DNA from: Torpedo marmorata
Lineage: Eukaryota
Assembly (NCBI GenBank): GCA_977017645.1
Contig: OZ360223.1
Coordinates: forward strand, 131,254,001 to 131,318,000
Direction: 5' to 3'
Length of the DNA: 64,000 bases
Shown: one piece after another, positions 51,501 to 64,000 of the stretch
Position numbering within the stretch: position 1 is the stretch's first letter
How the letters are laid out: every line of letters begins with the position of its first letter
Translations under genes and position numbers: made by a program
The notes under the pieces: model-generated
Seen by the model: the letters and a program-made list of their open reading frames with translations, nothing else
What the model was told of the DNA's origin: nothing
Databases searched by the model: none

Positions 51501-52212
51501 ATCGAGCTCGTCAGACAAGGTAAGTGTGAATCTGTGCTGCATTGAATCCAGCTGAAGGATATCCTTTTTAGATACATAGACCAAAACTCCATACAGAATT
51601 CCACATGGTCTGCACAATCTCAGCAAAATGTCCTGACACTTGTATTGCTACTTCCTTGCAACAAGGCCAACACTTGTCTTCCTAAGTACTTGCTGTTACT
51701 TTCTGCATTACATGGAGCATCTCTGTATACCAAAAGACAATTGACAATTCCTCTCCAGCCTCCCCTCACTCCCACTGATGCTGCTTGACCTGCTGAGTTT
51801 CTCCCACAGACGGTTTGTTGTTCTGCATACCAACACTTATTAATTTATCATTCTGTCCAAATTCTTCCAATTCTCTTTCCAAAATGAATACCCACATATT
51901 TTCCGACATTTTACTTATCTCTAGCATATGTTGAACTGTAGGAGGTTACAGAGACAGGGAAGCACAAGACCAAGAAGAATTAAAAAACAAGTTTGATCAC
52001 TTTTAATTTGAGGAGTAAATTGGATGATGGGTGAAGCTGGTCTTTATGTGAGCATGGAAATGAGCAGCAGAATTTATGAAGGGCAGCTGAAACCATCAGG
52101 GGATCAAGTCAAGGGGTAGCAAAAGAATGGTTGAGAGTTTCTGTTGCAAATGAACTGAGACAGGGTAAAGAATCAGGCAAAGTCATAGAGGTGAAAGTGG
52201 GCAGTCTCAATA

Positions 52213-52526
52213 GGCCTTTTCACACCGCCAAGTTCATGTGGGCACACCGTCCGATTTCTCGGGATCACCTGTAAAATGTCCAAATTGAAAAGGGCCAACC
52301 TGGCATGACGGGTCAAAATCGACTGGGCTCCGAGACCTAGTCGGAGGTAGTCTCGGAGCCCAGCCGATTTAACCTGGCAGCCGTCCTCTGGCAGTCTGAA
52401 AAGGCAAATGGCTCACCTCGTAATGTTACTGACGTCAGCGCATGCGTGCTTGCGTCACATAAAACCCATAAAAATAGAAATAAGAGATACAACAATATAA
52501 ATGTTACTTTAATGATGGCAAAGGGA
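52213..52526. mobile_element. PIF/Harbinger-like non-autonomous element, left end
   Basis: Starts GGCCTTTTCACAC after a TA-containing site; internal palindrome at 52316-52370. Cut by an L1 insertion; no right TIR seen. Confidence 0.55.
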
Positions 52527-52889
52527 CCTAAGCCACAATATTTTTTTTTATTTTTTTTTAATATTTTATTTTAAATTTTGAATTTTCTCACAGTAGTACA
52601 ACATACGTAATATACATCATTAATTCCAGTAAATAAAAAACATAATTTGTATTACAGTGTATCTAACCCATCCCTTAACCCACCCTCTATAAATTGCTAC
52701 CCCACCCTCCACCCTTCCCCTTCCTTTAATTCCCTTCCCTTACTAAAAACTAAAAGAAAAAAACAGAAAGGAAGGCATTGGTATTACTTATTAAAAACAT
52801 CTGTACGGATTGCTGCTGGGTCCACGGCTCGACGCATGGTATTCAACAATATTTATTCTTTAAATTTGAGAAGATGTAGAGGAACACAA

Positions 52890-55800
52890 TTAGATATTCA
52901 TACCTAATGATTGGATATATGGACGCCAAATTTGCAAAAATATCCCATATTTATTTCTCATATTATATGTTATTTTTTCCAATGGAATACAACTCCGCAT
53001 CTCTATATTCCATCTATCCATGCCTAAATTTGTATCTGATTTCCAAGTTACTGCTATACACTTCCTTGCTACTGCTAAAGCGATTTTTACAAATTTCAAT
53101 TGACATGTTGATAACTTCAACTTTGGTCTAGTTCCTTCCACATTCCCTAATAAAAATAAATCAGGATTCTGTGGAAATATAACACCTGTAATTTGTTTTA
53201 ACAGATTCCCTAACTCTATCCAAAAGTGTTTTACTTTAGGGCATAACCATGTTGAATGTAAAAAAGTTCCCCCCTCTTCACCACATCTAAAACACTTATT
53301 TGATAATGTAGATTTTATCTTATTCAATTTTTGTGGTGTAAGATATAGTTGATGTAAAAAATTATACTGTACTAATCTATATCTTACATTAATAGTGTTG
53401 GTCATACTATCTTGACATAAATCCGACCATCTTTTTTCATCAATTATAACATTAAGATCTTGCTCCCATCTTTGTCCAGATCTATGAAGTCCTTGTTTTA
53501 AGGCTCCCCTTTGTAACAAAGAATATATTATAGAAGTAAATTTTTAAATATTTCCTTTCCTAATAAGGGTTTCTACCTCACTACAATCTTGTAACAACAT
53601 ATCCGGACCTAGTTTTTCCCTTAAATAACCTTTTAATTGAAAATAACAAAAAAGAGTATTATTGGGTATTCCATATTTGTTTCGTAACTGTGTAAACAAC
53701 ATCAATTGGTTCCCTTCATAACAATCTTCTATCTTCTTTATTCCTTTCTGTGACCATATATTTAAAAATTGATTATCTTTTGTAAAAGGTATGAGATTAT
53801 TCTGTATCAATTACATTTTAGGTGATATAGTTCCTTTCATCCCTATCTCATCATTAATCTTATTCCAAGCATTAATCAAATGTTTTAGTAACGGTGTTTC
53901 TTTAACACCTGCCAATAATTTTGAGTTCCATTTATATATAAATTCTTCTGGTACCTTTTCTCCTATTTCTCCAAGCTCTATTCCAACCCATGCAGGTCTT
54001 CCTTCACTTTCAAAAAAAGAAGTAACAAATCTCATTTGTGCCGCTCGATAATAATTTTTAAAATTAGGGAGTTGTAAACCTCCCAATTCGTATTTCCATG
54101 TTAAACGTTCCATAGAAACTCTTGACATTTTACCTTTCCAAAGAAATTTTCGCACTTGTTTATTTAAATCGGGGAAAAAAAACCTGTGGTAATAAAATAG
54201 GTATAGTTTGATACAAATACTGTATCCTCGGAAATATATTCATTTTAATACAATTAACTCTTCCTATCAATGTAATAGGTAAATTAATCCATTTTTCCAA
54301 ATCTTATTTAATCTTTTTAAGTATTGGTAGATAATTCCATTTATATAGATTTTTAAAATTATTATCTGTTTGAATCCCGAGATATTTTATCCCATTATGT
54401 GGCCATTTAAGTTGAGTGCTTCTTTTACATAAAGTATAATCTCCCTCTGTGAGAGGCATAATTTCACTTTTATCCCAGTTTATCTTATAACCAGAAACTT
54501 TCCCATATTCTTCCAATTTAAAATGCAATTTTTGCAGAGAGGTCTCAGGCTCTGTCAAGAATATTAAAATATAGTCCACAAATAAGCAGATTTTATGTTG
54601 CTCTTGACCAACTGTAAATCCCTTAATTGCCAAATCACTTCTTATTGCCTCTGCAAGTGGTTCTATAGCTAATATAAATAAAGCTGGTGACAATGGGCAC
54701 CCTTGTCGGCTAGATCTTGTCAATCAAAACGAAGTTGATATTTGTCCGTTAGTCACTACTTTTACTTTTGGAGCATTATATAATGCTTTAATCCAATCTA
54801 TATAAATCCTCCCAAATCCAAACTTCTCCAATACTTTAAACAAAAAAATCCCACTCCAGTCTATCAAAAGCTTTCTCTGCATCTAGTGCCACCGCAACAC
54901 TTAGTACTTTTCTTTTTTGAGCAAAATGAACAATACTAAGTAACCTTGCTACATTGTCAGCTGCTTGTCTTTTTTTTGTAAAGCCTGTTTGATCCATATT
55001 TACTAATTTTGGCAAAAATGTTGTTATTCTATTGGCCAAGATTTTTGCTACAATCTTATAGTCTGCATTCAGTAATGAAATTGGTCTATATGATGAAGGT
55101 TTCAATGGGTCCCTGTCTTTTTTTAGTATTACAGTAATTATTGCTGTAGAAAAGATTCTGGAAGTGTATGAGTCACAGACGGTTGCTGTAACATATTGTT
55201 ACAAATTCAAACCAGCAACGACAGAAGACGCAATGCAAAAGGGGTAAAATTGAAATTATTATTTATTAAACACAAGTAAACATATAATTTCACAACAATT
55301 AACCCCACTATAAATGTCTATAAACACTATTCTTATCTAAAAGGTGTGTGTGTGTGTGTAAAGCCCAGACCATTACAGTCTGTACCCAACCCTTATGTAA
55401 AAATGGAAAAACTTTCCCCAAAAACCCCAGGTCAGTCATAAAAAACAAGTCAGTCAAAAAAAAAGATAATACAGTCTACAAATTCACTCTCTAAGTTCAG
55501 GCTTCAACTTCAGCTCTGTGTCTGGTAGAAGTACTTCTGAATGAACGTTGGAGAGAGACAATAACTGTTTATGCTTACAAATACTTGTTTTCTTCTCTGA
55601 TGACATCCCCTTCTTGTATGTTCATAAGGATTGCAAGTTCCAGATCAGTATACCACTGATTTAGGCGTGTGCTTGAATCTCACAGCCAGTTTCGCTGATC
55701 TCACGCCTGTTCTCCACAGAAGTTGCTTTTTCTCAGAATTTCTCTCTGAGACAGGAGGCCATGTGCTTTTCTGCCAGTGATTTTCTCTGGCTTGCACAAG

Positions 55801-57582
55801 CCTGGATTTGGCTGTGTCCTGTAGCCTTTGCAACTTACAACTGTCTGCTTTTCCTGCAGAAATCTGCACCTGCTTTTTGCAAAAGTGAAACAAATGTATC
55901 TTGTCCAGTCTGTCTGTCTCTCTCTCTCTCTGGTCTCTCTCTGTCTGGGTACACCAAGAGTGCAACAATGTATCTTGTCTGGGTACACCAAGTAGCTGGG
56001 GGAAGTTAACTCTTTCAGTACCTGGCCCCAGTGTATACTCCAAAAGACTTCATCCTTCCTGCTGACCGTCCGCAGTCCAAATGGTCAGTCATGGTCCATA
56101 ACAATATCCATAAACACAGGAATTAATAATTCCTTAAACTCTTTATAAAACTCTGGCGGAAAACCATCCTCTCCCGGTGCTTTATTACTTTGTAGTGTAC
56201 TCATTGCATCCTTCACCTCCTTCTGCATAAACTGGGTACTTAATTCTAGTTGCTCTTGCATATTTAATCTTGGTAAATTTATTTGTGATAAATATCCATC
56301 GATTTTACTATCATCTTGCAGAGATTCTGATTTATATAAATCAGAATAGAAGTTTTTTAAAAGAATCATTTATTATTTGAGGTTTATAGCTAATAACATC
56401 AGCCTCGGTTTTAACTGCATTAATTGTTCTTGATGCCTGTTCTGTTTTTAATTGCCATGCTAGTACTTTATGTGAATGTTCACCTAACTCATAATATCTT
56501 TGCTTAGTTCTTATAATAATCTTCTCCGTTCTATAAGTCTGTAATACGTTATATTGAAGTTTTTTATTAATTAATTGTCTACGTTTATCTACAGAGCTCC
56601 TCTTTTGTAAATCTTTATCTAAAATTGTTATTTCTTTTTCTAATTGGTCTATTTCTCTCATATATTCCTTTTTAATTTTTGAAGAATAACTTATGATTTG
56701 ACCTCTTAAATATACTTTCAAAGTTTCCCATATTACAAATTTATCAGGCATGGAGTTTAGATTTGTTTCGCAAAATATCTGAATTTGCCTCCTTATAAAA
56801 TCACAGAAATCTGTTCTTTTTAATAATAAAGGATTCAATCTCCATCTATATATCGATTTTTCTTTATCAGGTACAACAATTGTCATCAATAAAGGTGAAT
56901 GGTCAGACAAAATCCTTGCTTTATACTCTGCTTCCAGAATTCTGTCTTGCAGTTGAGCTGAAACTAAAATTAAATCAATTCTGGAATAAGAATCATGCCT
57001 ACTAGAATAAAATGAAAAATCTTTATCCCTTGGATGAATTCTTCTCCAGGCATCTATCAAGTTTAAGTCTTTCATTAATACCAGCGTAGCTCTCGCTGCC
57101 TTAGTTCTCTTCACTCCTCTTGTAGACTTATATAAGACCAGATCTAAACAAAAGTTGAAGTCTCCCCCTATTATAATATTCTCATGTGCTTCCGCTATAT
57201 TAAGAAAAGTTTCTTGAATAAACTTATCATCATCCATATTGGGAAGATATATATTCAAAAAAGTCCAAAATTCTGAATATATCTGACAGTGGATCATTAC
57301 ATATCTCCCTACAGGATCCGTCACAACGCTCTGAATTATAATTGGAAGATTCTTTTTTATTAAAATTGCCACACCCCTTGCTTTAGAATTAAATGAAGAA
57401 GCCGCTACATATCCCACCCAGTCTCTTTTTAATTTCAAATGTTCTTTCTCTGCTAAATGTGTCTCTTGTAAAAAAGGCACATCAACACCCAATTTTTTAA
57501 TATACGCTAATACTCTTTTCCTCTTAATTGGTCCATTTATCCCATTAATATTAAAGTTCAAAAATCTTGCTATATTACTCAT
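52890..57582 (-). pseudogene. L1 ORF2 (APE endonuclease, RT, zinc knuckle), frameshifted and LTR-interrupted
   Basis: NFNINGIN..LQETH..GGDFN..SRID..SDH; YRPISLLN; QGCPLSP; CFRC. Confidence 0.93.
55197..56103 (-). mobile_element. Solo LTR of the Gmr1-like family (variant with internal duplication)
   Basis: TGTTAC...ATAACA; TSD ATAT at 55193-55196 and 56104-56107; duplicated TGTATCTTGTC and CTGGGTACACCAAG blocks at 55895-55992. Confidence 0.95.
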
Positions 57583-58059
57583 TTTAAATTACATATTTCA
57601 TTCCTTTTAATGTTACCTCTTCCAGCCCAGACCCCCTAACTCTCTCCCTTTTACTTCGTTCTTCAATCTCCATCGCGTCAATATATGTCCCCCCCAGCAA
57701 TCAATACAAATAGAAAATAAAAAATATAAAATTAAAGAATACACTCCCCCCCTTCCACAAAAGTAAAAAAACAAGCTAACTACATCCCCTCTAGCGCTTT
57801 TAAAATACACAGCGCTACCCCCCTCTATTTTACGGGTCACGACCAAAGTCGCAAAAGTACACTTGATTCCAGTAGTAGTCAGGACCTCATTCTCCTCCCC
57901 CCCCAACCCCCCTGGTATAAAATTTTTATATATATGTATTCTTTTAAAAGAAAAGAAATACAAACACAAAGTAGTCAATCATCAATTTTGCCAAATTTAC
58001 AAACGGATATAAGTTGTTCCATCGCCAATTGTAAGACTTTCTCTTTTCTAACGTTCCTC

Positions 58060-59159
58060 TCCAACTCTCAAAGCCTGCGGAAGTTCGTTAGCAAATTCCT
58101 CTGCCAGAGTACAGTTTGTAAAGATTTGTTTTGTTGGTCTGGTAGAAAGAGCTTCAAGGTCGCAGTACAAATCTGTAGCCCTTCTCCCAAAGGATCTTTT
58201 TAGCTGGGTTGAATTCCTTCATTAAGTCAGCACTTATATCAGGATAAAAAAGAATTCTGGCCTCATTATATATCAAAGCGCCATGTCTTGCTCTTGCTTG
58301 TTCCATCGCCAGTTGTAAAACTTTCTCCCTATCTTGATAACGAAGGAATTTAATTAAAATTGAACGCGGATTTTGATCTTGTGACGGCTTTGCTCTTAGA
58401 GCCGTGTGTGCTCTTTCAATTTCAATTGTATGATCAAACTTATCTGGACGCAGTACATCAGGTATCCAAGTTTTAATAAAAGCAATCATATCTTGCCCTT
58501 CTTCTTCTTCTTTAAGACCAACTATTTTTATATGATTTCTTCTACTGAAATTCTCCAATATATCCACTTTTTGTTGAAGCTTCTTATTTTCCATTACTAA
58601 GGCAGTGATATTATTTTCCACCTTATCCACTCTCTCTTCAGTATATTCCATGTCAGCTTGTACTTTCTTAACTTTTTTCTCAACCTTTTGACTTTAAGCC
58701 TTTTATATCTTTTATCACTTCTTTAACATCCTTCATATCAGCCTTTAATTCATTCAGTATTCTTAACAAAGCTGCATAACCTGCTGATTTGCCTTTTTCC
58801 TCCACAGCTGATAATGCTCGCTCCTCCCGTGGTTGTTGTTGTAATTATTCGACTTCCAGCTGGCCCCCTTCGTCATCTGAGTCAGAGCCTCTTGAATCAT
58901 CTTGTCCCGACGCTGCAGAGTCTGGTGAAAGCTGCGGAGTTCCGCGCTTGCGCACTACCGGCCCGACTTCTTCCTCGACGCTATGATCTTGTGGTCGAGG
59001 ACGTGCAGTGCCAGCAGAGATCCCCATCAACGGTGCATCCTCCCGGGGATCCATTTGAACTTCAGCTCCCCGGTGTCGAGGCCTTTTTGCAGTCAGAGTC
59101 TTCTCCTTTCGTTGAGCTTTAGGTAAGGCTCTGGCTGATTTGTCTTTTTTTAAAGGCAT
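58060..59159 (-). pseudogene. L1 ORF1, disrupted (3' boundary approximate)
   Basis: MPLKKDK..; coiled coil; LENFSRRNHIKIVGL..IERAH..PRSILIKFLRYQD. Confidence 0.85.
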
Positions 59160-60289
59160 TATTACTTTTTTACTGGTGCTTAAATACTTTTTTAAGAAGG
59201 TTAAAACTTTTTAAAACGTTTTTTAATCGACACTTTTTAAACATTCCCAGGAGGGTCAGGTTACTACGTCCTAACCCTACGGCATCACGTGACGTCCCCC
59301 CCTAAGCCACAATATTAAAAGTATTTTCTTTCTTTTCTTTTTAAAATCTCTTTATTAATTCCATAAAATCATGGATTTAACAGTTCATTCACTATATATG
59401 TTTCTGGAAGAGTATGGGTTTCCATAGCCTGTTCTAATACTTGCATGAATATAGGAATTAACAAATCTTTAAATTCTTTATAGAATTCAGGTGGAAATCC
59501 ATCTTCTCCAGGTGACTTATTACTTTGCAAAGAAGTCATAGCTTCCTTTACTTCTACCTCAGTAATTAAAGCATTTTGTTCTGTTTGCTCCTGTATATTT
59601 AATCTGGGTAGTATTATGTGTGGTAGATAAGTATTTATCTTATTATCATCTCTTAAAGACTCTGAGCTATATAGTTTTGAATAAAAAATTTTAAAAGACT
59701 CATTTATTTCTTGAGGTTTATATGTCACTACATTATTTTCTTTTTTGATTGCATTGATTGTTCTTGAAATCTGTCCCGCCTTTAATTGCCAAGCTAATAC
59801 CTTATGTGATCGCTCACCTAGTTCGTAATATCTCTGTTTCATTCTTATTATTGCTTTTTCAGTTGTATACGTTTGTAACGTATTATATTGAATTTTTTTA
59901 TTAATCAAGTATCTACGTTTATCTTCTGAAGGAGAAATTTGTAAGTCTTTCTCTAATATTGTAATTTTATTCTTTTTTAATGTTAGAAGTAAAACTTATA
60001 ATTTGGCTTCTTAAATACGCTTTTATAGTGTCCCATATAATAAATTTATCATTTACCGAGTTCAAATTTGTATCACAAAATAATTGAATATGTGTTCGAA
60101 CAAACTCACAAAAATCTTTTCTTTTCAACATCAAAGAATTGGGTCTCCACCTATAAATCGATTTCTCCTTATCAGGCATTTCCATCGTTATTAATAAAGG
60201 CGAATGATCAGATATGAATCTTGGTTTATAATCCGCTTCTACAACCCTAGCTTGCATTTGGGCGGGAAATCAAAAATAAATCAATTCTT

Positions 60290-61406
60290 TTTTTTTTGAA
60301 TATTTTATTTGTATTTTTTAAAGCCAAACATGTTATCAATAACAAAATAATACATCGTCAAATATAATATTTGTCTGTTGACTATTATACTAAAAAAACA
60401 ACAAAATTACAAACAAAGGAAAACCCACCCACCCAATTCCCCCCTAAATAACCATATAACCATACAACAATTACAGCACGGAAACAGGCCATTAGGCCCT
60501 TCCAGTCCGCACTGAACCAAACATTCCTATCTAGTCCCACCTACCTGCACCCTGCCCATAACCCTCCACTTCCTTCTCATCCATATACTTGTCCAACTTT
60601 TTCTTAAATAATAAAATTGACTCTGCCGCCACTACTTCTCCCGGAAGCTCATTCCACACCGCTACCACTCTCTGAGTAAAGAAGTTCCCCCTCATGTTAC
60701 CTCTAAACCTCTGCCCCTTAATTCTTAGCTCATGTCCTCTTGTTTCAATCTCTCCTATTCTTAATGGAAATAGTCTATCCACATCCACTCTGTCTATCCC
60801 TTTCATAATTTTAAATACCTCTATCAAATCCCCTCTCAACCTTCTACGCTCCAAAGAATAAAGACCTAATATGCTCAATCTCTCCTTGTACTCTAGATTC
60901 TTAAACCCAGGTAACATTCTGGTAAATCTTCTCTGCACTCTCTCCACCTTGTTGATATCCTTCCTATAATTTGGCGACCAGAACTGCACACAGAACTCTA
61001 AATTGGTCGCACCAAAGCCTTATATAATCTCAACATCACTTCCCAACTCCTATATTCTATGCAATGATTGGTAAAGGCCAGCATACTAAAAGCCTTCTTC
61101 ACCATCCTATTCACATGAGTTTCCACCTTCAGGGAACGATGCACCGTTATTCCTAAATCTTTCTGCTCTTCTGTATTCATCAATGAAAGAAAAGAGAGGA
61201 ATAGAATAAGGAAAGGTTGAAATAGAAAAGGAAAGAAGATGTTGGAGGCTCGTCGTCCACCCCGCAGGCTTAAATTACTTGGCACACTCGGATTTCTGAA
61301 GAGTAAACGGACATAGGTCCTGGAGGCGAGGGAGGGCCTGGTTATAGATTTACAGCCATGTGTTGTAAATATGGAGTCCAAATCTTTAAAAATATATCAT
61401 ATCTAT
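60290..61406 (-). mobile_element. Short L1 3' end nested in the L1 endonuclease; itself split by CR1
   Basis: RYDIFLKIWTPYLQHMAVNL*, 3'UTR and poly-A. Host SYSR | IDLF rejoins across a short TTCTT repeat. Confidence 0.8.
60449..61185 (-). mobile_element. CR1 3' end, relatively well preserved
   Basis: ORF 60531-60989 QFWSPNYRKD..FFTQRVVAVWNELP; (ATATGGTT)n tail. Confidence 0.93.
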
Positions 61407-62508
61407 TTCTTGAATAGGAATCAAATCTAGTCGAATAAAATGAATAATCTTTTTCTCTAGGGTGAATTCTTCTCCATAAATCTATTAGATTTAAATCTCT
61501 CATCAAATCCAATGTTACCTTAGCTGCTTTCATTCTTCTTATTACCTGTGTAGATCTATCTAACAATGGATCTAAACAGAAATTGAAGTCTCCCCCTATT
61601 AAAATATTATCACGTGCCTGTGCTAGATTAAAAAAAGTATCTCAAATTAATTTCTCATTGTCAACATTCGGGGCATACAAATTCAAAAAAGTCCACATCT
61701 CAGAATATATTTGACAATGTACCATTACATATCTCCCTGATGGATCTGTAACAACATTCTGAACTTTAATTGGAAGATTATTTTTTATCAAAATCACCAC
61801 CCCTCTTGATTTAGAGTTAAATGAGGAGGACATTTGATATCCCACCCAATCCCTTTTTAATTTCAAGTGTTCTTTTTCAGTCAAATGTGTTTCTTGAAGA
61901 AAAGCTACATCAACTCCCAGTTTCTTAATATATGTTAATATTCTCTTCCTTTTTACGGGCCCGTTTAACCCATTGACATTAAAATTTAAAAACCTTATTT
62001 ATATATTCATCAAAATATATAAAAAAATATATAACACCTCCCCCTGCAAGTCTCCTCCATACAGTAAATGACTTCATATGTCCGAGCGCACTTCCTCAAG
62101 CAATCCAAAAAAAAGGAAAAAAGACAAATACAAATATAAAAGATATATAATTATACAGTTATACTTATAACAATAACAAAAACCCTCCCAGTAAGTGTTG
62201 TATAGTTTGACAACACTAACTCCCTCTATTTTACGGGTTGTGACTAAAGTCACTAAAACACATATAATCCCACAGTAATCAACCCCACCCCCCCCCCACT
62301 CCTCCCAACTCCCTTGGTATTATTTTTATATCTTAATCACTTCATTAATTCAATTTAAACAATTAATTAATTAATTAATCAACCACAATTAACAAATTAT
62401 CCCAAAAATCAAGGGAAAAAAAAGAAACAAAATACTACTTCAATTTCTTCTGTCTCAATTATACAATTTGAGTTTTAAAAAAAACAGAAAGAGAAAAAAA
62501 AAATTAAA

Positions 62509-63741
62509 TCAGTCTAGCAAATTCACATTGGTCGCAGCTGGCTGCATTGCAGGAAGGTTCCAAGCATATTCCTCCGCTTCATAAGGATTGTTGAAAATTT
62601 TATTTTGTTCTCCCGTAACAAAAACCTTCAAGGTTGCAGGATGTCGAAGAATAAATCTATATCCTTTGTCATAAAGAATCTTCTTAGCTGGGTTAAATTC
62701 TTTTCTTCTCCTTAAAAGATCTTCACTCATGTCACGATAAAACAAAATACTATCCCCTTCCCATTGTAATGGACCATTTCTGTCCCTCGCTCCTTTCAGT
62801 GCCAGACTAAGAACTTTCTCTCTATCTTGATAGCGCAGGAACTTTATCAATATAGAACGTGGTTTCTGATTAGAAGGAGGCTTTGATCTGAGAGCTCTAT
62901 GTGCTCGTTCCACTTCAATTGGATATGGAAAGTTTTCTTCTCCCAATACTTTAGGGAACCACTTTTGAAAAAAGTTAATCACATCCAAACCTTCTTTTCC
63001 TTCTGTAAGACCTACTATTTTAATATTGTTTCTTCTGCTAAAGTTCTCCAAAATATCAACTTTTTCAACAAGCTTTTGATTTATTGATACCAAACCAGTA
63101 ATTGTATTTTCTGTATAAGATACCCTTTGCTCAACTCGTTCTACATCCTCTTGTGTTCCAGTCATTCTTTCTTCCATTTTATCCAGTCTTTTCTTCATTT
63201 TATTTACAACTTCTAATACTTTATTAGTTTCTGCCTTTCCATCTTTAAATCCCTTTTCCATTTGTACTTCCATTTGTACTTGCAATGCCTTAATTTGCTG
63301 CATTATAATTATAGTTTGAGGATTTAATTTAGTATCCTCCATTACCTCCTCTTGTATCTCTTCTTCTTCATCTTCTGCCTCTTCTAACGAACCTCTTCTG
63401 GATCCCATCTCTTCCTCCGGCGCTGACGCTGAAGACCCCGACTTCTCAAGGGTTTGCTGCCCTCCCAGTAATGCTTTGAGCATTACAGCAGTGCGCATGC
63501 GCGGTTTCTCGCGCATGCGCATACGCGTTGCACTTCTGGGTTCCCCACCGACGTCTTCTCTCTGTGGTAATGGCTGAGAGACGCCGGCAGAGGTCCCTTC
63601 CATAGGGTCTAAAAATCGGGTGGCAGCACGAACTCCAGTCCCCTGCTTCAACGTTGCGGTAGGCCTAACTTCTTTCTTCTCCTTTTCTTCCCGTCGGGTT
63701 CCAGGAGTCTCTGTAGTCGCTTTTTCTTTTTTTTGAGGCAT
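62509..63741 (-). CDS. L1 ORF1 protein (coiled coil + RRM + CTD), open frame of 410 aa
   Basis: LENFSRRNNIKIVGL, VERAHR, PRSILIKFLRY and HPATLKV motifs; ATG ~140 bp from the element 5' end. Confidence 0.9.
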   Translation of the reverse strand: MPQKKEKATTETPGTRREEKEKKEVRPTATLKQGTGVRAATRFLDPMEGTSAGVSQPLPQREDVGGEPRSATRMRMREKPRMRTAVMLKALLGGQQTLEKSGSSASAPEEEMGSRRGSLEEAEDEEEEIQEEVMEDTKLNPQTIIIMQQIKALQVQMEVQMEKGFKDGKAETNKVLEVVNKMKKRLDKMEERMTGTQEDVERVEQRVSYTENTITGLVSINQKLVEKVDILENFSRRNNIKIVGLTEGKEGLDVINFFQKWFPKVLGEENFPYPIEVERAHRALRSKPPSNQKPRSILIKFLRYQDREKVLSLALKGARDRNGPLQWEGDSILFYRDMSEDLLRRRKEFNPAKKILYDKGYRFILRHPATLKVFVTGEQNKIFNNPYEAEEYAWNLPAMQPAATNVNLLD

Positions 63742-64000
63742 TATGGAGGTAAAGTAGATGTATTTAAATATCGTTTAAAGATATTTATAAAGTTAAAACA
63801 GTACTTATTTCGGACTTTTTTTACTAATTTCCCAAGGGAGTGAGGAGCTTACGTGTTGATCCTACGGCATCACGTGACGTCCCCTCACTTTGAGTAATGT
63901 TGAGTGAGTAATGAAATCTGACTAGGACCCTGGGAAGAACTCACCTACTCTTTCTTAGGTGAAAGGGTGGATATGGAAAGGATGTTTTCTCTTGTTTCCA

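Follow-up and report, generated by a model that had tools for sequence, protein, structure and literature searches.

The window, by which we mean the whole stretch of 64,000 nucleotides of Torpedo marmorata DNA analysed here, contains two decayed L1-type elements. Both have Pfam matches to Exo_endo_phos and RVT_1 and the L1-type layout, with ORF1 and a spacer before ORF2. ORF1 of these elements has no Pfam match, and thus the L1 label rests on the layout and on known L1 motifs. On a protein tree of the sampled copies, the first element (copy 1) belongs to family A and the second (copy 2) to family B; the family labels are our own. The ORF2 of copy 2 is split by a fragment of another retroelement (60531-61396, minus strand), which has no Pfam match and which we take to resemble the 3' end of a CR1-type LINE.

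The spacers of both elements contain, on the minus strand, a block of two hairpins separated by a conserved linker (Table 1). A preliminary description of this DNA had noted an identical 17-mer at 57821-57837 and 62222-62238, which is indeed present and corresponds to the linker, and two flanking hairpins, which read as described: GCGAC-UUUG-GUCGU and GUGAC-UUUA-GUCAC for hairpin 1, AGCGCU..AGCGCU and AGUGUU..AACACU for hairpin 2. The pairing of hairpin 1 stands, but not its length of 5 bp, as up to 7 bp are formed across families. The block had been placed approximately 180-210 nt upstream of ORF2; measured from its 3' end, the distance is 203 nt to the AUG at 57582 and 173 nt to the AUG at 62010. 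The spacers had also been said to be mostly unalignable outside the block. This has to be amended for the region downstream of it, which is not wholly unalignable. Nor should the spacers be taken as non-coding: a hidden reading frame of 60-90 codons, which had been overlooked, has its beginning covered by the block. In both window copies the start AUG of this frame has been privately lost (AAG at 57864, AUA at 62265) and the frame ends early; in intact family A copies the stop is mostly at -9 or +1. The one-base difference at 57632, in the region of copy 1, is seen in contigs of four sequencing runs, which cover the family A spacer; among the runs listed, none was recorded as RNA.

Table 1. 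Features of the two spacer blocks and the adjacent ORF2 starts (positions in the window)
Feature	Position	Strand	Remarks
Upstream G-rich/pyrimidine hairpin H0, predicted, copy 1 (family A)	57877..57908	-	pairing in 97.5% of cells (31 copies of family A); changes relative to the commonest pair one-sided only
Hidden-ORF start site 1, copy 1	57862..57864	-	AAG here (private decay); AUG in 37/41 family A copies
Hairpin 1, copy 1 (7 bp and tetraloop)	57837..57854	-	both-sided change in 7/7 pairs, 33 copies
Conserved linker CYYG-N6-RGAGGGRGKU, copy 1	57817..57836	-	translated R-K-I-E-G-G
Start site 2 in the linker, copy 1	57826-57828	-	AUA here; AUG in 26/44 family C copies
Hairpin 2, copy 1	57792..57817	-	both-sided change in 5/9 pairs
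3' G tract after hairpin 2, copy 1	57783..57791	-	in all seven families, at variable distance
Hidden ORF, copy 1 (83 codons)	57613..57864	-	likely gained one base near 57632; stops 33 nt short of the ORF2 AUG
ORF2 start (AUG at 57582) and endonuclease domain, copy 1	56341..57582	-	Pfam Exo_endo_phos, E 1e-15
Start site 1, copy 2 (family B)	62263..62265	-	AUA here; AUG in 23/30 family B copies
Hairpin 1, copy 2	62238..62255	-	7-bp form in 24/30 family B copies
Conserved linker, copy 2	62218..62237	-	translated R-K-I-E-G-V
Hairpin 2, copy 2 (8 bp)	62194..62217	-	
Hidden ORF, copy 2	62074..62265	-	63 codons, shortened by a length change in a U run
ORF2 start (AUG at 62010) and beginning of endonuclease, copy 2	61642..62010	-	Pfam Exo_endo_phos, E 2e-9

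A search of the window with a 16-mer, allowing at most two mismatches, yielded two occurrences against 0.02 expected, a number reached in none of 100 shuffles. The exact 16-mer has 3,018 copies in the 6.2-Gb genome, compared to one for the reversed control, and a looser core pattern has 32,915 matches against 3,686 for its control. Three loci matching the loose pattern (L312, L342, L343) are similar copies of another repeat and have no L1 endonuclease motif downstream. As a guard against circular sampling, L1 copies were drawn by motifs of the ORF2 endonuclease (54,734 matches for the first pattern) and not by the element, and further listed loci were added; the loci from the 16-mer search and from most endonuclease-motif searches come from the beginning of one contig. 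The protein tree separates clade A (families A-G, with both window copies) from a distant clade B at about 35% identity. Families F and G were assigned by position and eye only. Eighty more L1 loci were taken from host DNA in metagenome assemblies, and two segments of these, L234:1100-1620 and L171:1-270, align with family G along the spacer, which might reflect horizontal transfer or a related host. No relatives were found in viral and prokaryotic collections.

The hairpins, initially described from two sequences, covary over five L1 families. In 33 copies of families A-E, 89% of 617 cells are paired and 12 of the 19 pairs have both-sided changes, whereas slid controls pair in 34-65% of cells and none of 500 shuffles reaches the covariation score. 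RNAalifold recovers, unprompted, both hairpins and a 3-bp middle stem. On an ORF2-DNA tree of 27 copies, 14 compensatory same-branch events were observed over 15 pairs, 11 of them on internal branches; matched non-paired columns (20,000 draws) give a mean of 0.95 and a maximum of 9 such events, with the register of hairpin 1 uncertain in family E. Thus the objection that significant covariation might be lacking does not hold. Neither does CpG decay in single copies explain the changes, as they are common to several copies per family and include a U-A/A-U transversion pair. Among 14 hairpin-1 haplotypes, each found in at least 2 of 103 copies (84 cells), there are 71 Watson-Crick pairs, 11 G-U pairs and 2 A-C pairs. 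Since symmetric CpG decay would produce the last two classes equally, this favours the sense RNA and argues against such decay. At fourfold sites of ORF2, families A-E are 21-56% identical and silent sites are near saturation between these families, compared to 13-18 of 20 core bases kept.

Taken alone, neither window block folds better than its shuffled versions (z -0.10 and -0.44), and thus the case rests on covariation. For the 80-nt core, z falls below -1.64 in 18 (sense) and 19 (antisense) of 31 copies, so that the strand is not given by folding. Medians are -5.8 to -10.4 kcal/mol for single hairpins; the 80-nt core has -17 to -34 kcal/mol.

The Rfam search proposed in the preliminary description produced no match on any spacer element, with E up to 5 in the window (52000-64000) and up to 10 at 20 other loci. 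Elsewhere, near an L1 of another clade, a 5S rRNA-like sequence (L142:570-688) exceeds the Rfam threshold (51 bits) and may be a pseudogene or a 5S-derived SINE. Model R1 detects families A-E and, weakly, family G (E 0.003); family F and clade B were not found with it, nor was any of the 80 metagenome loci (best E 0.16). Thus on present evidence the two-hairpin structure is clade-specific. The covariation and the Rfam result support a real, selected cis-acting RNA element without an Rfam family, as had been suggested.

Several further pairings agree with the sequences and are considered candidates. The linker may form either the local 3-bp hairpin or a long-range helix with the 5' end. The latter shows 94% pairing over 45 copies of family C, against as much as 80% in slid controls, and a haplotype shuffle gives p 0.10; in family A it has no both-sided change. 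A candidate pseudoknot of 4 bp in family A reaches 97.5% pairing, and one of its pairs has changed on both sides. The third candidate is the upstream hairpin H0.

The linker lies in a long open frame, in which it reads R-x-x-E-G-G. No stop interrupts this frame until 15 nt or less from the ORF2 AUG in 19 of 41 copies of family A and 27 of 44 of family C; the remaining two frames from the core are closed after 0-10 codons in family A, and mostly by codon 17 in family C. Most copies without the full frame are broken in U or G runs or by point stops. In family C, 30 of 44 copies have a core-to-ORF2 distance divisible by three, with nine such lengths from 201 to 234. The frame is open for 80-93 codons in 16 of 30 family B copies, and for 69-83 codons in five of six family E copies, the samples being small for families D (n=4) and E (n=6). 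In nearly all copies 166-254 nt separate the core from the ORF2 AUG downstream (395 nt where one copy has an insertion), and this interval contains 0-8 AUGs; no depletion of AUG was seen in the spacers. A spacer of another locus, L138, has a MITE-like insertion of about 200 nt with inverted repeats directly before the ORF2 AUG.

In clade A, 14 of 19 spacers have a frame of at least 45 codons ending at most 15 nt from the ORF2 AUG, as do 10 of 12 spacers in clade B and 39 of 50 from the metagenome loci; di- and trinucleotide shuffles predict 2.3-3.9, 1.5-2.2 and 9-13, respectively. The genome sets in this count have about one copy per subfamily and were not picked for intactness; the 50 metagenome spacers are what is left of the 80 loci after dropping near-duplicates and those with too little upstream DNA or no in-frame ATG. 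A larger set gave 44/57, 20/26 and 10/11. An AUG leads at least 30 codons in nine of the 14 clade A, five of the 10 clade B and 31 of the 39 metagenome frames. Taking the three sets together, 63 of 81 spacers have such a frame with its stop at -13 to +14 relative to the ORF2 AUG, and 41 of these 63 stops are in the -1 frame; many ORF2 starts are in stop-start contexts. As the frame occurs in clade B and the metagenome loci, where model R1 found no such structure, it does not need these hairpins. A separate observation concerns family E (L037, L122, L124, L127-L129), where the 20 codons that precede the endonuclease motif are free of AUG. Five of these six copies have a GUG overlapped by UGA at the position of the ORF2 AUG of other families, a possible non-AUG restart.

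Twelve clade B loci (L081, L083, L087, L091, L093, L094, L096, L097, L099, L101, L105, L107) have a different conserved layout, 350-100 nt before ORF2, in the order GGAGC, GRAAG-type motif, GGGUU, variable GAGC-led hairpin, long G tract, AAGGUU; GGAGC is enriched in clade B spacers relative to shuffles (z 6.1). Three more clade-specific motifs were noted by eye in metagenome loci (L195, L197, L207, L218, L220, L228, L231, L232; L203, L213, L233, L249; L239, L245, L246). Their apparent stems are a UCCUC..GUGGA hairpin, CCUGCAG-hairpin-AUAGG, and GGAGGG-CCC..CCCUCC-ACCCACCAAC. All three spacer sets contain strand-biased G tracts, with GGGA enriched relative to shuffles (z 7.6 in the metagenome). 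Four-run G-quadruplex-like patterns were seen on the sense strand of 5/19, 10/12 and 17/52 spacers, and on the antisense strand of 0, 0 and 1.

The positions of start codons link the frame to the hairpins. An in-frame AUG within -37 to +25 of the core is present in 80 of 101 copies, an out-of-frame one in six. Start site 1, an AUG 10 nt before hairpin 1, was found in 37 of 41 copies of family A, five of six of family B and all four of family D. In family C the position is that of start site 2, about 13 nt before hairpin 2, with AUG in 26 of 44 copies; the other 18 have no in-frame AUG near the core and contain ACG (nine copies) or ACA, GUA or GAA (nine copies). In family E the AUG is at the foot of hairpin 1 and not ahead of it. 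Where the ORF1 stop was found, start site 1 is about 130-250 nt past it in most copies of families A and B, and several AUGs lie in this interval; the distance from that stop to the core is about 90-140 nt in most copies of family C.

The hidden peptide is under weak selection. Its amino acids drift almost freely, including through the stems, and thus it is the frame that is conserved, not the peptide. In the core, the codon GAG is kept in 99 of 101 copies, and GGU or GUU likewise in 99 of 101, while the first codon varies between Arg, Cys and His, a pattern that indicates constraint on nucleotides there. Among copies picked for an intact frame, 14 from family C and 11 from family A, both tails have a dN/dS of 0.67 and the core has 0.83 and 1.39; post-insertion mutations push these values towards 1, and the pairs are not independent. 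Shifted frames give 0.61-0.88 and the first 30 codons of ORF2 give 0.03 and 0.37. Five of the six segments of the hidden frame thus lie at 0.67-1.39, near the shifted frames, which falls short of purifying selection.

We slightly favour the following interpretation of these sequence patterns. The covarying hairpins over the start of the hidden ORF would set initiation there. Firstly, they would pause the small subunit over an in-frame AUG or near-cognate codon 10-15 nt upstream. Secondly, the hidden frame would be translated, and elongating ribosomes would pass the AUGs of the spacer and terminate beside the ORF2 AUG. Finally, ORF2 would be reached by termination-reinitiation. Reinitiation had been among the options proposed initially, and the hidden ORF points to it, although by a route different from anything suggested then. 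The ribosomes may come from termination on ORF1 or from internal entry, the two being about evenly balanced. Several observations stand against this interpretation: the hidden ORF is general in other L1 sets while the two-hairpin structure is not; the hairpins are weak and close to the start codon, as discussed below; the AUG is missing near the core in 18 of 44 family C copies and misplaced relative to hairpin 1 in family E; the hydrophobic middle of the peptide has a low dN/dS in family C; and a conserved UGGGA tether was not seen.

Some other routes to ORF2 were considered and rejected. A two-step relay via an internal AUGA in family B is rejected since 16 of 30 copies are continuous. A shunt would call for a stable hairpin late in the spacer, but its 3' half shows none (mean z 0.0, 4 of 31 below -1.64). 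A frameshift extension of ORF1 is contradicted by many family C copies with an in-frame stop just 5' of hairpin 1. Inspection by eye revealed no conserved YAG at ORF2 that could serve as a splice site, and A(A/T)TAAA counts of 0-3 as regards polyA signals.

A bolder version, which we consider possible but rather doubtful, is that long-spacer L1s are three-ORF messages, in which the clade-specific RNA would recruit ribosomes internally, at AUG or non-AUG codons, onto the hidden ORF, with stop-restart at ORF2. If so, a new class of compact entry sites in retrotransposons would have its first defined member in this block, and the middle ORF would have been lost from mammalian L1s with short spacers, the long-spacer form being thought ancestral in vertebrates.

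Comparably doubtful, if not slightly more so, is the possibility that the hidden ORF relays ribosomes while the hairpins do another job, such as binding of ORF1p, ORF2p or a host protein, RNA stability or an elongation pause, their position being incidental. The occurrence of the frame in clades without this structure is consistent with that, as are the weakness of the hairpins for start-site enhancement and the freedom of amino acids to change through the stems. However, four families keep their in-frame AUGs at a fixed distance before one or the other hairpin, in a stretch with hardly any out-of-frame AUGs, which argues against an incidental position.

It is improbable that the hidden ORF encodes a working membrane micropeptide, a third L1 protein whose synthesis is controlled by the hairpins, with coupling to ORF2 secondary. 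Every intact copy tested does have a 19-residue hydrophobic window (Kyte-Doolittle 1.8-3.1 in 14 family C copies, 1.2-1.7 in 11 family A copies), and dN/dS of this segment is 0.37 in family C. However, the same segment has 1.02 in family A, and the tails, as noted, resemble shifted frames. Hydrophobic residues are the default product of U-rich RNA, the peptide has no Pfam match, and the stop is held at the start of ORF2.

Even less probable is a classical IRES delivering ribosomes directly to the ORF2 AUG. A structured G-rich element in a dicistronic spacer would suit this option of the preliminary description, and GGGA is over-represented (z 2.2, 2.8 and 7.6, shuffles being the sole control). 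However, such an IRES fits poorly with a core separated from the AUG by the distance and the AUGs given above, leaves the conserved open frame unexplained, and has no Rfam IRES match at the E values searched. The IRESs predicted for L1 spacers in the accessible text of PMC5381506 lie within 10 nt of ORF2.

Non-LTR elements carry ribozymes, and families A-E share a few invariant bases in the linker. Separation of the ORF1 and ORF2 messages by a self-cleaving ribozyme or at a processing site is nevertheless very unlikely, and this earlier suggestion has found no support, as there is no Rfam ribozyme match and the linker loop of families F and G has another length and sequence. In a comparison by eye, the consensus folds of twister, pistol, HDV-like and type IV IRES structures do not fit.

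L1 families can recombine, and single copies fold no better than shuffles, but a neutral relic of shared ancestry, module exchange or CpG decay is the least likely reading of all, given the compensatory events, the nearly saturated fourfold sites, the G-U/A-C skew and the excess of the frame over shuffles; module exchange, moreover, would not produce stems that differ in sequence yet keep their pairs.

By the tests made, the favoured mode likely resembles termination-reinitiation, and is likely neither TURBS nor an IGR IRES. In human L1, unconventional termination-reinitiation is the reported mode of ORF2 translation (Alisch et al. 2006, as cited in PMC5972666, PMC4072516 and PMC5381506). The element class is the same, and in both cases ORF2 starts close to the stop of an upstream ORF. 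However, in human L1 this ORF is ORF1 and the spacer has 63 nt, whereas here it is a separate hidden ORF in a spacer of 260-500 nt and starts in a covarying structure. Megabat L1 shares the long spacer, where removal of AUGs cut retrotransposition 3.3-fold and shuffling 8.8-fold (PMC4072516); in contrast to our elements, neither a conserved long ORF ending at ORF2 nor a conserved structure is described in the available part of that paper.

In calicivirus and influenza B, stop and restart are within about 14 nt and often overlap, as here, the calicivirus ORFs overlapping by 1-14 nt (PMC5972666, in the part available). However, TURBS lie 40-90 nt before the stop-restart site and have a fixed UGGGA, held in a motif 2/2* stem, whereas the hairpins considered here are found where the upstream ORF begins, 150-250 nt ahead of that site. 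No conserved UGGGA tether was observed 40-90 nt before the restart across the three sets. In the -60 to -31 bin, GGGA occurs in 13/19 clade A, 4/12 clade B and 3/50 other spacers, and UGGGA in clade A has z 0.7. In the non-LTR retrotransposon SART1 (Kojima et al. 2005, as cited in PMC5972666), stop-restart also involves an RNA structure, which is required there and proposed here. There, according to the same source, ORF1 is coupled directly to ORF2 and the structure is downstream of the restart site.

START, as outlined in the available text of PMC11165317, involves a hairpin a short way downstream of an AUG or near-cognate codon, within a translated frame. A structure downstream of an in-frame start is found here too, the frame being predicted. 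However, START was found to need a stability of about -15 kcal/mol and to work best with the structure at +20 to +26 (14 nt according to earlier work cited there), whereas our hairpins are weaker (-6 to -10 kcal/mol) and nearer (approximately +11 to +16). The dicistrovirus IGR IRES, server-predicted for L1 spacers in PMC5381506, is likewise a structured RNA in a dicistronic gap, but it has nested pseudoknots and ends at the start of the downstream ORF, whereas the core described here is far upstream of ORF2 and has no Rfam match.

The same paper, in its accessible text, infers that long spacers are ancestral, reports no shared structure among spacers, and calls reinitiation over long spacers inefficient and risky; the terms "uORF", "upstream ORF" and "stop codon" are absent from its main text as available. 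The extra L1 ORFs named in the accessible part of PMC5203782 are antisense only. A search of the literature, covering few subscription journals and no Repbase annotations, with sources available in part, found no such structure and no conserved spacer ORF ending at ORF2.

How ORF2 protein is made from a dicistronic L1 RNA is an open question, most difficult where the spacer is long and rich in AUGs. This paradox would be removed by a conserved frame that finishes on the start of ORF2 and is headed by a covarying structure, which would also give exact testable mutations. If this interpretation is true, many "intergenic" annotations of L1 elements hide a translated ORF, and one-base slips in its U and G runs may silence ORF2 without touching ORF2 itself.
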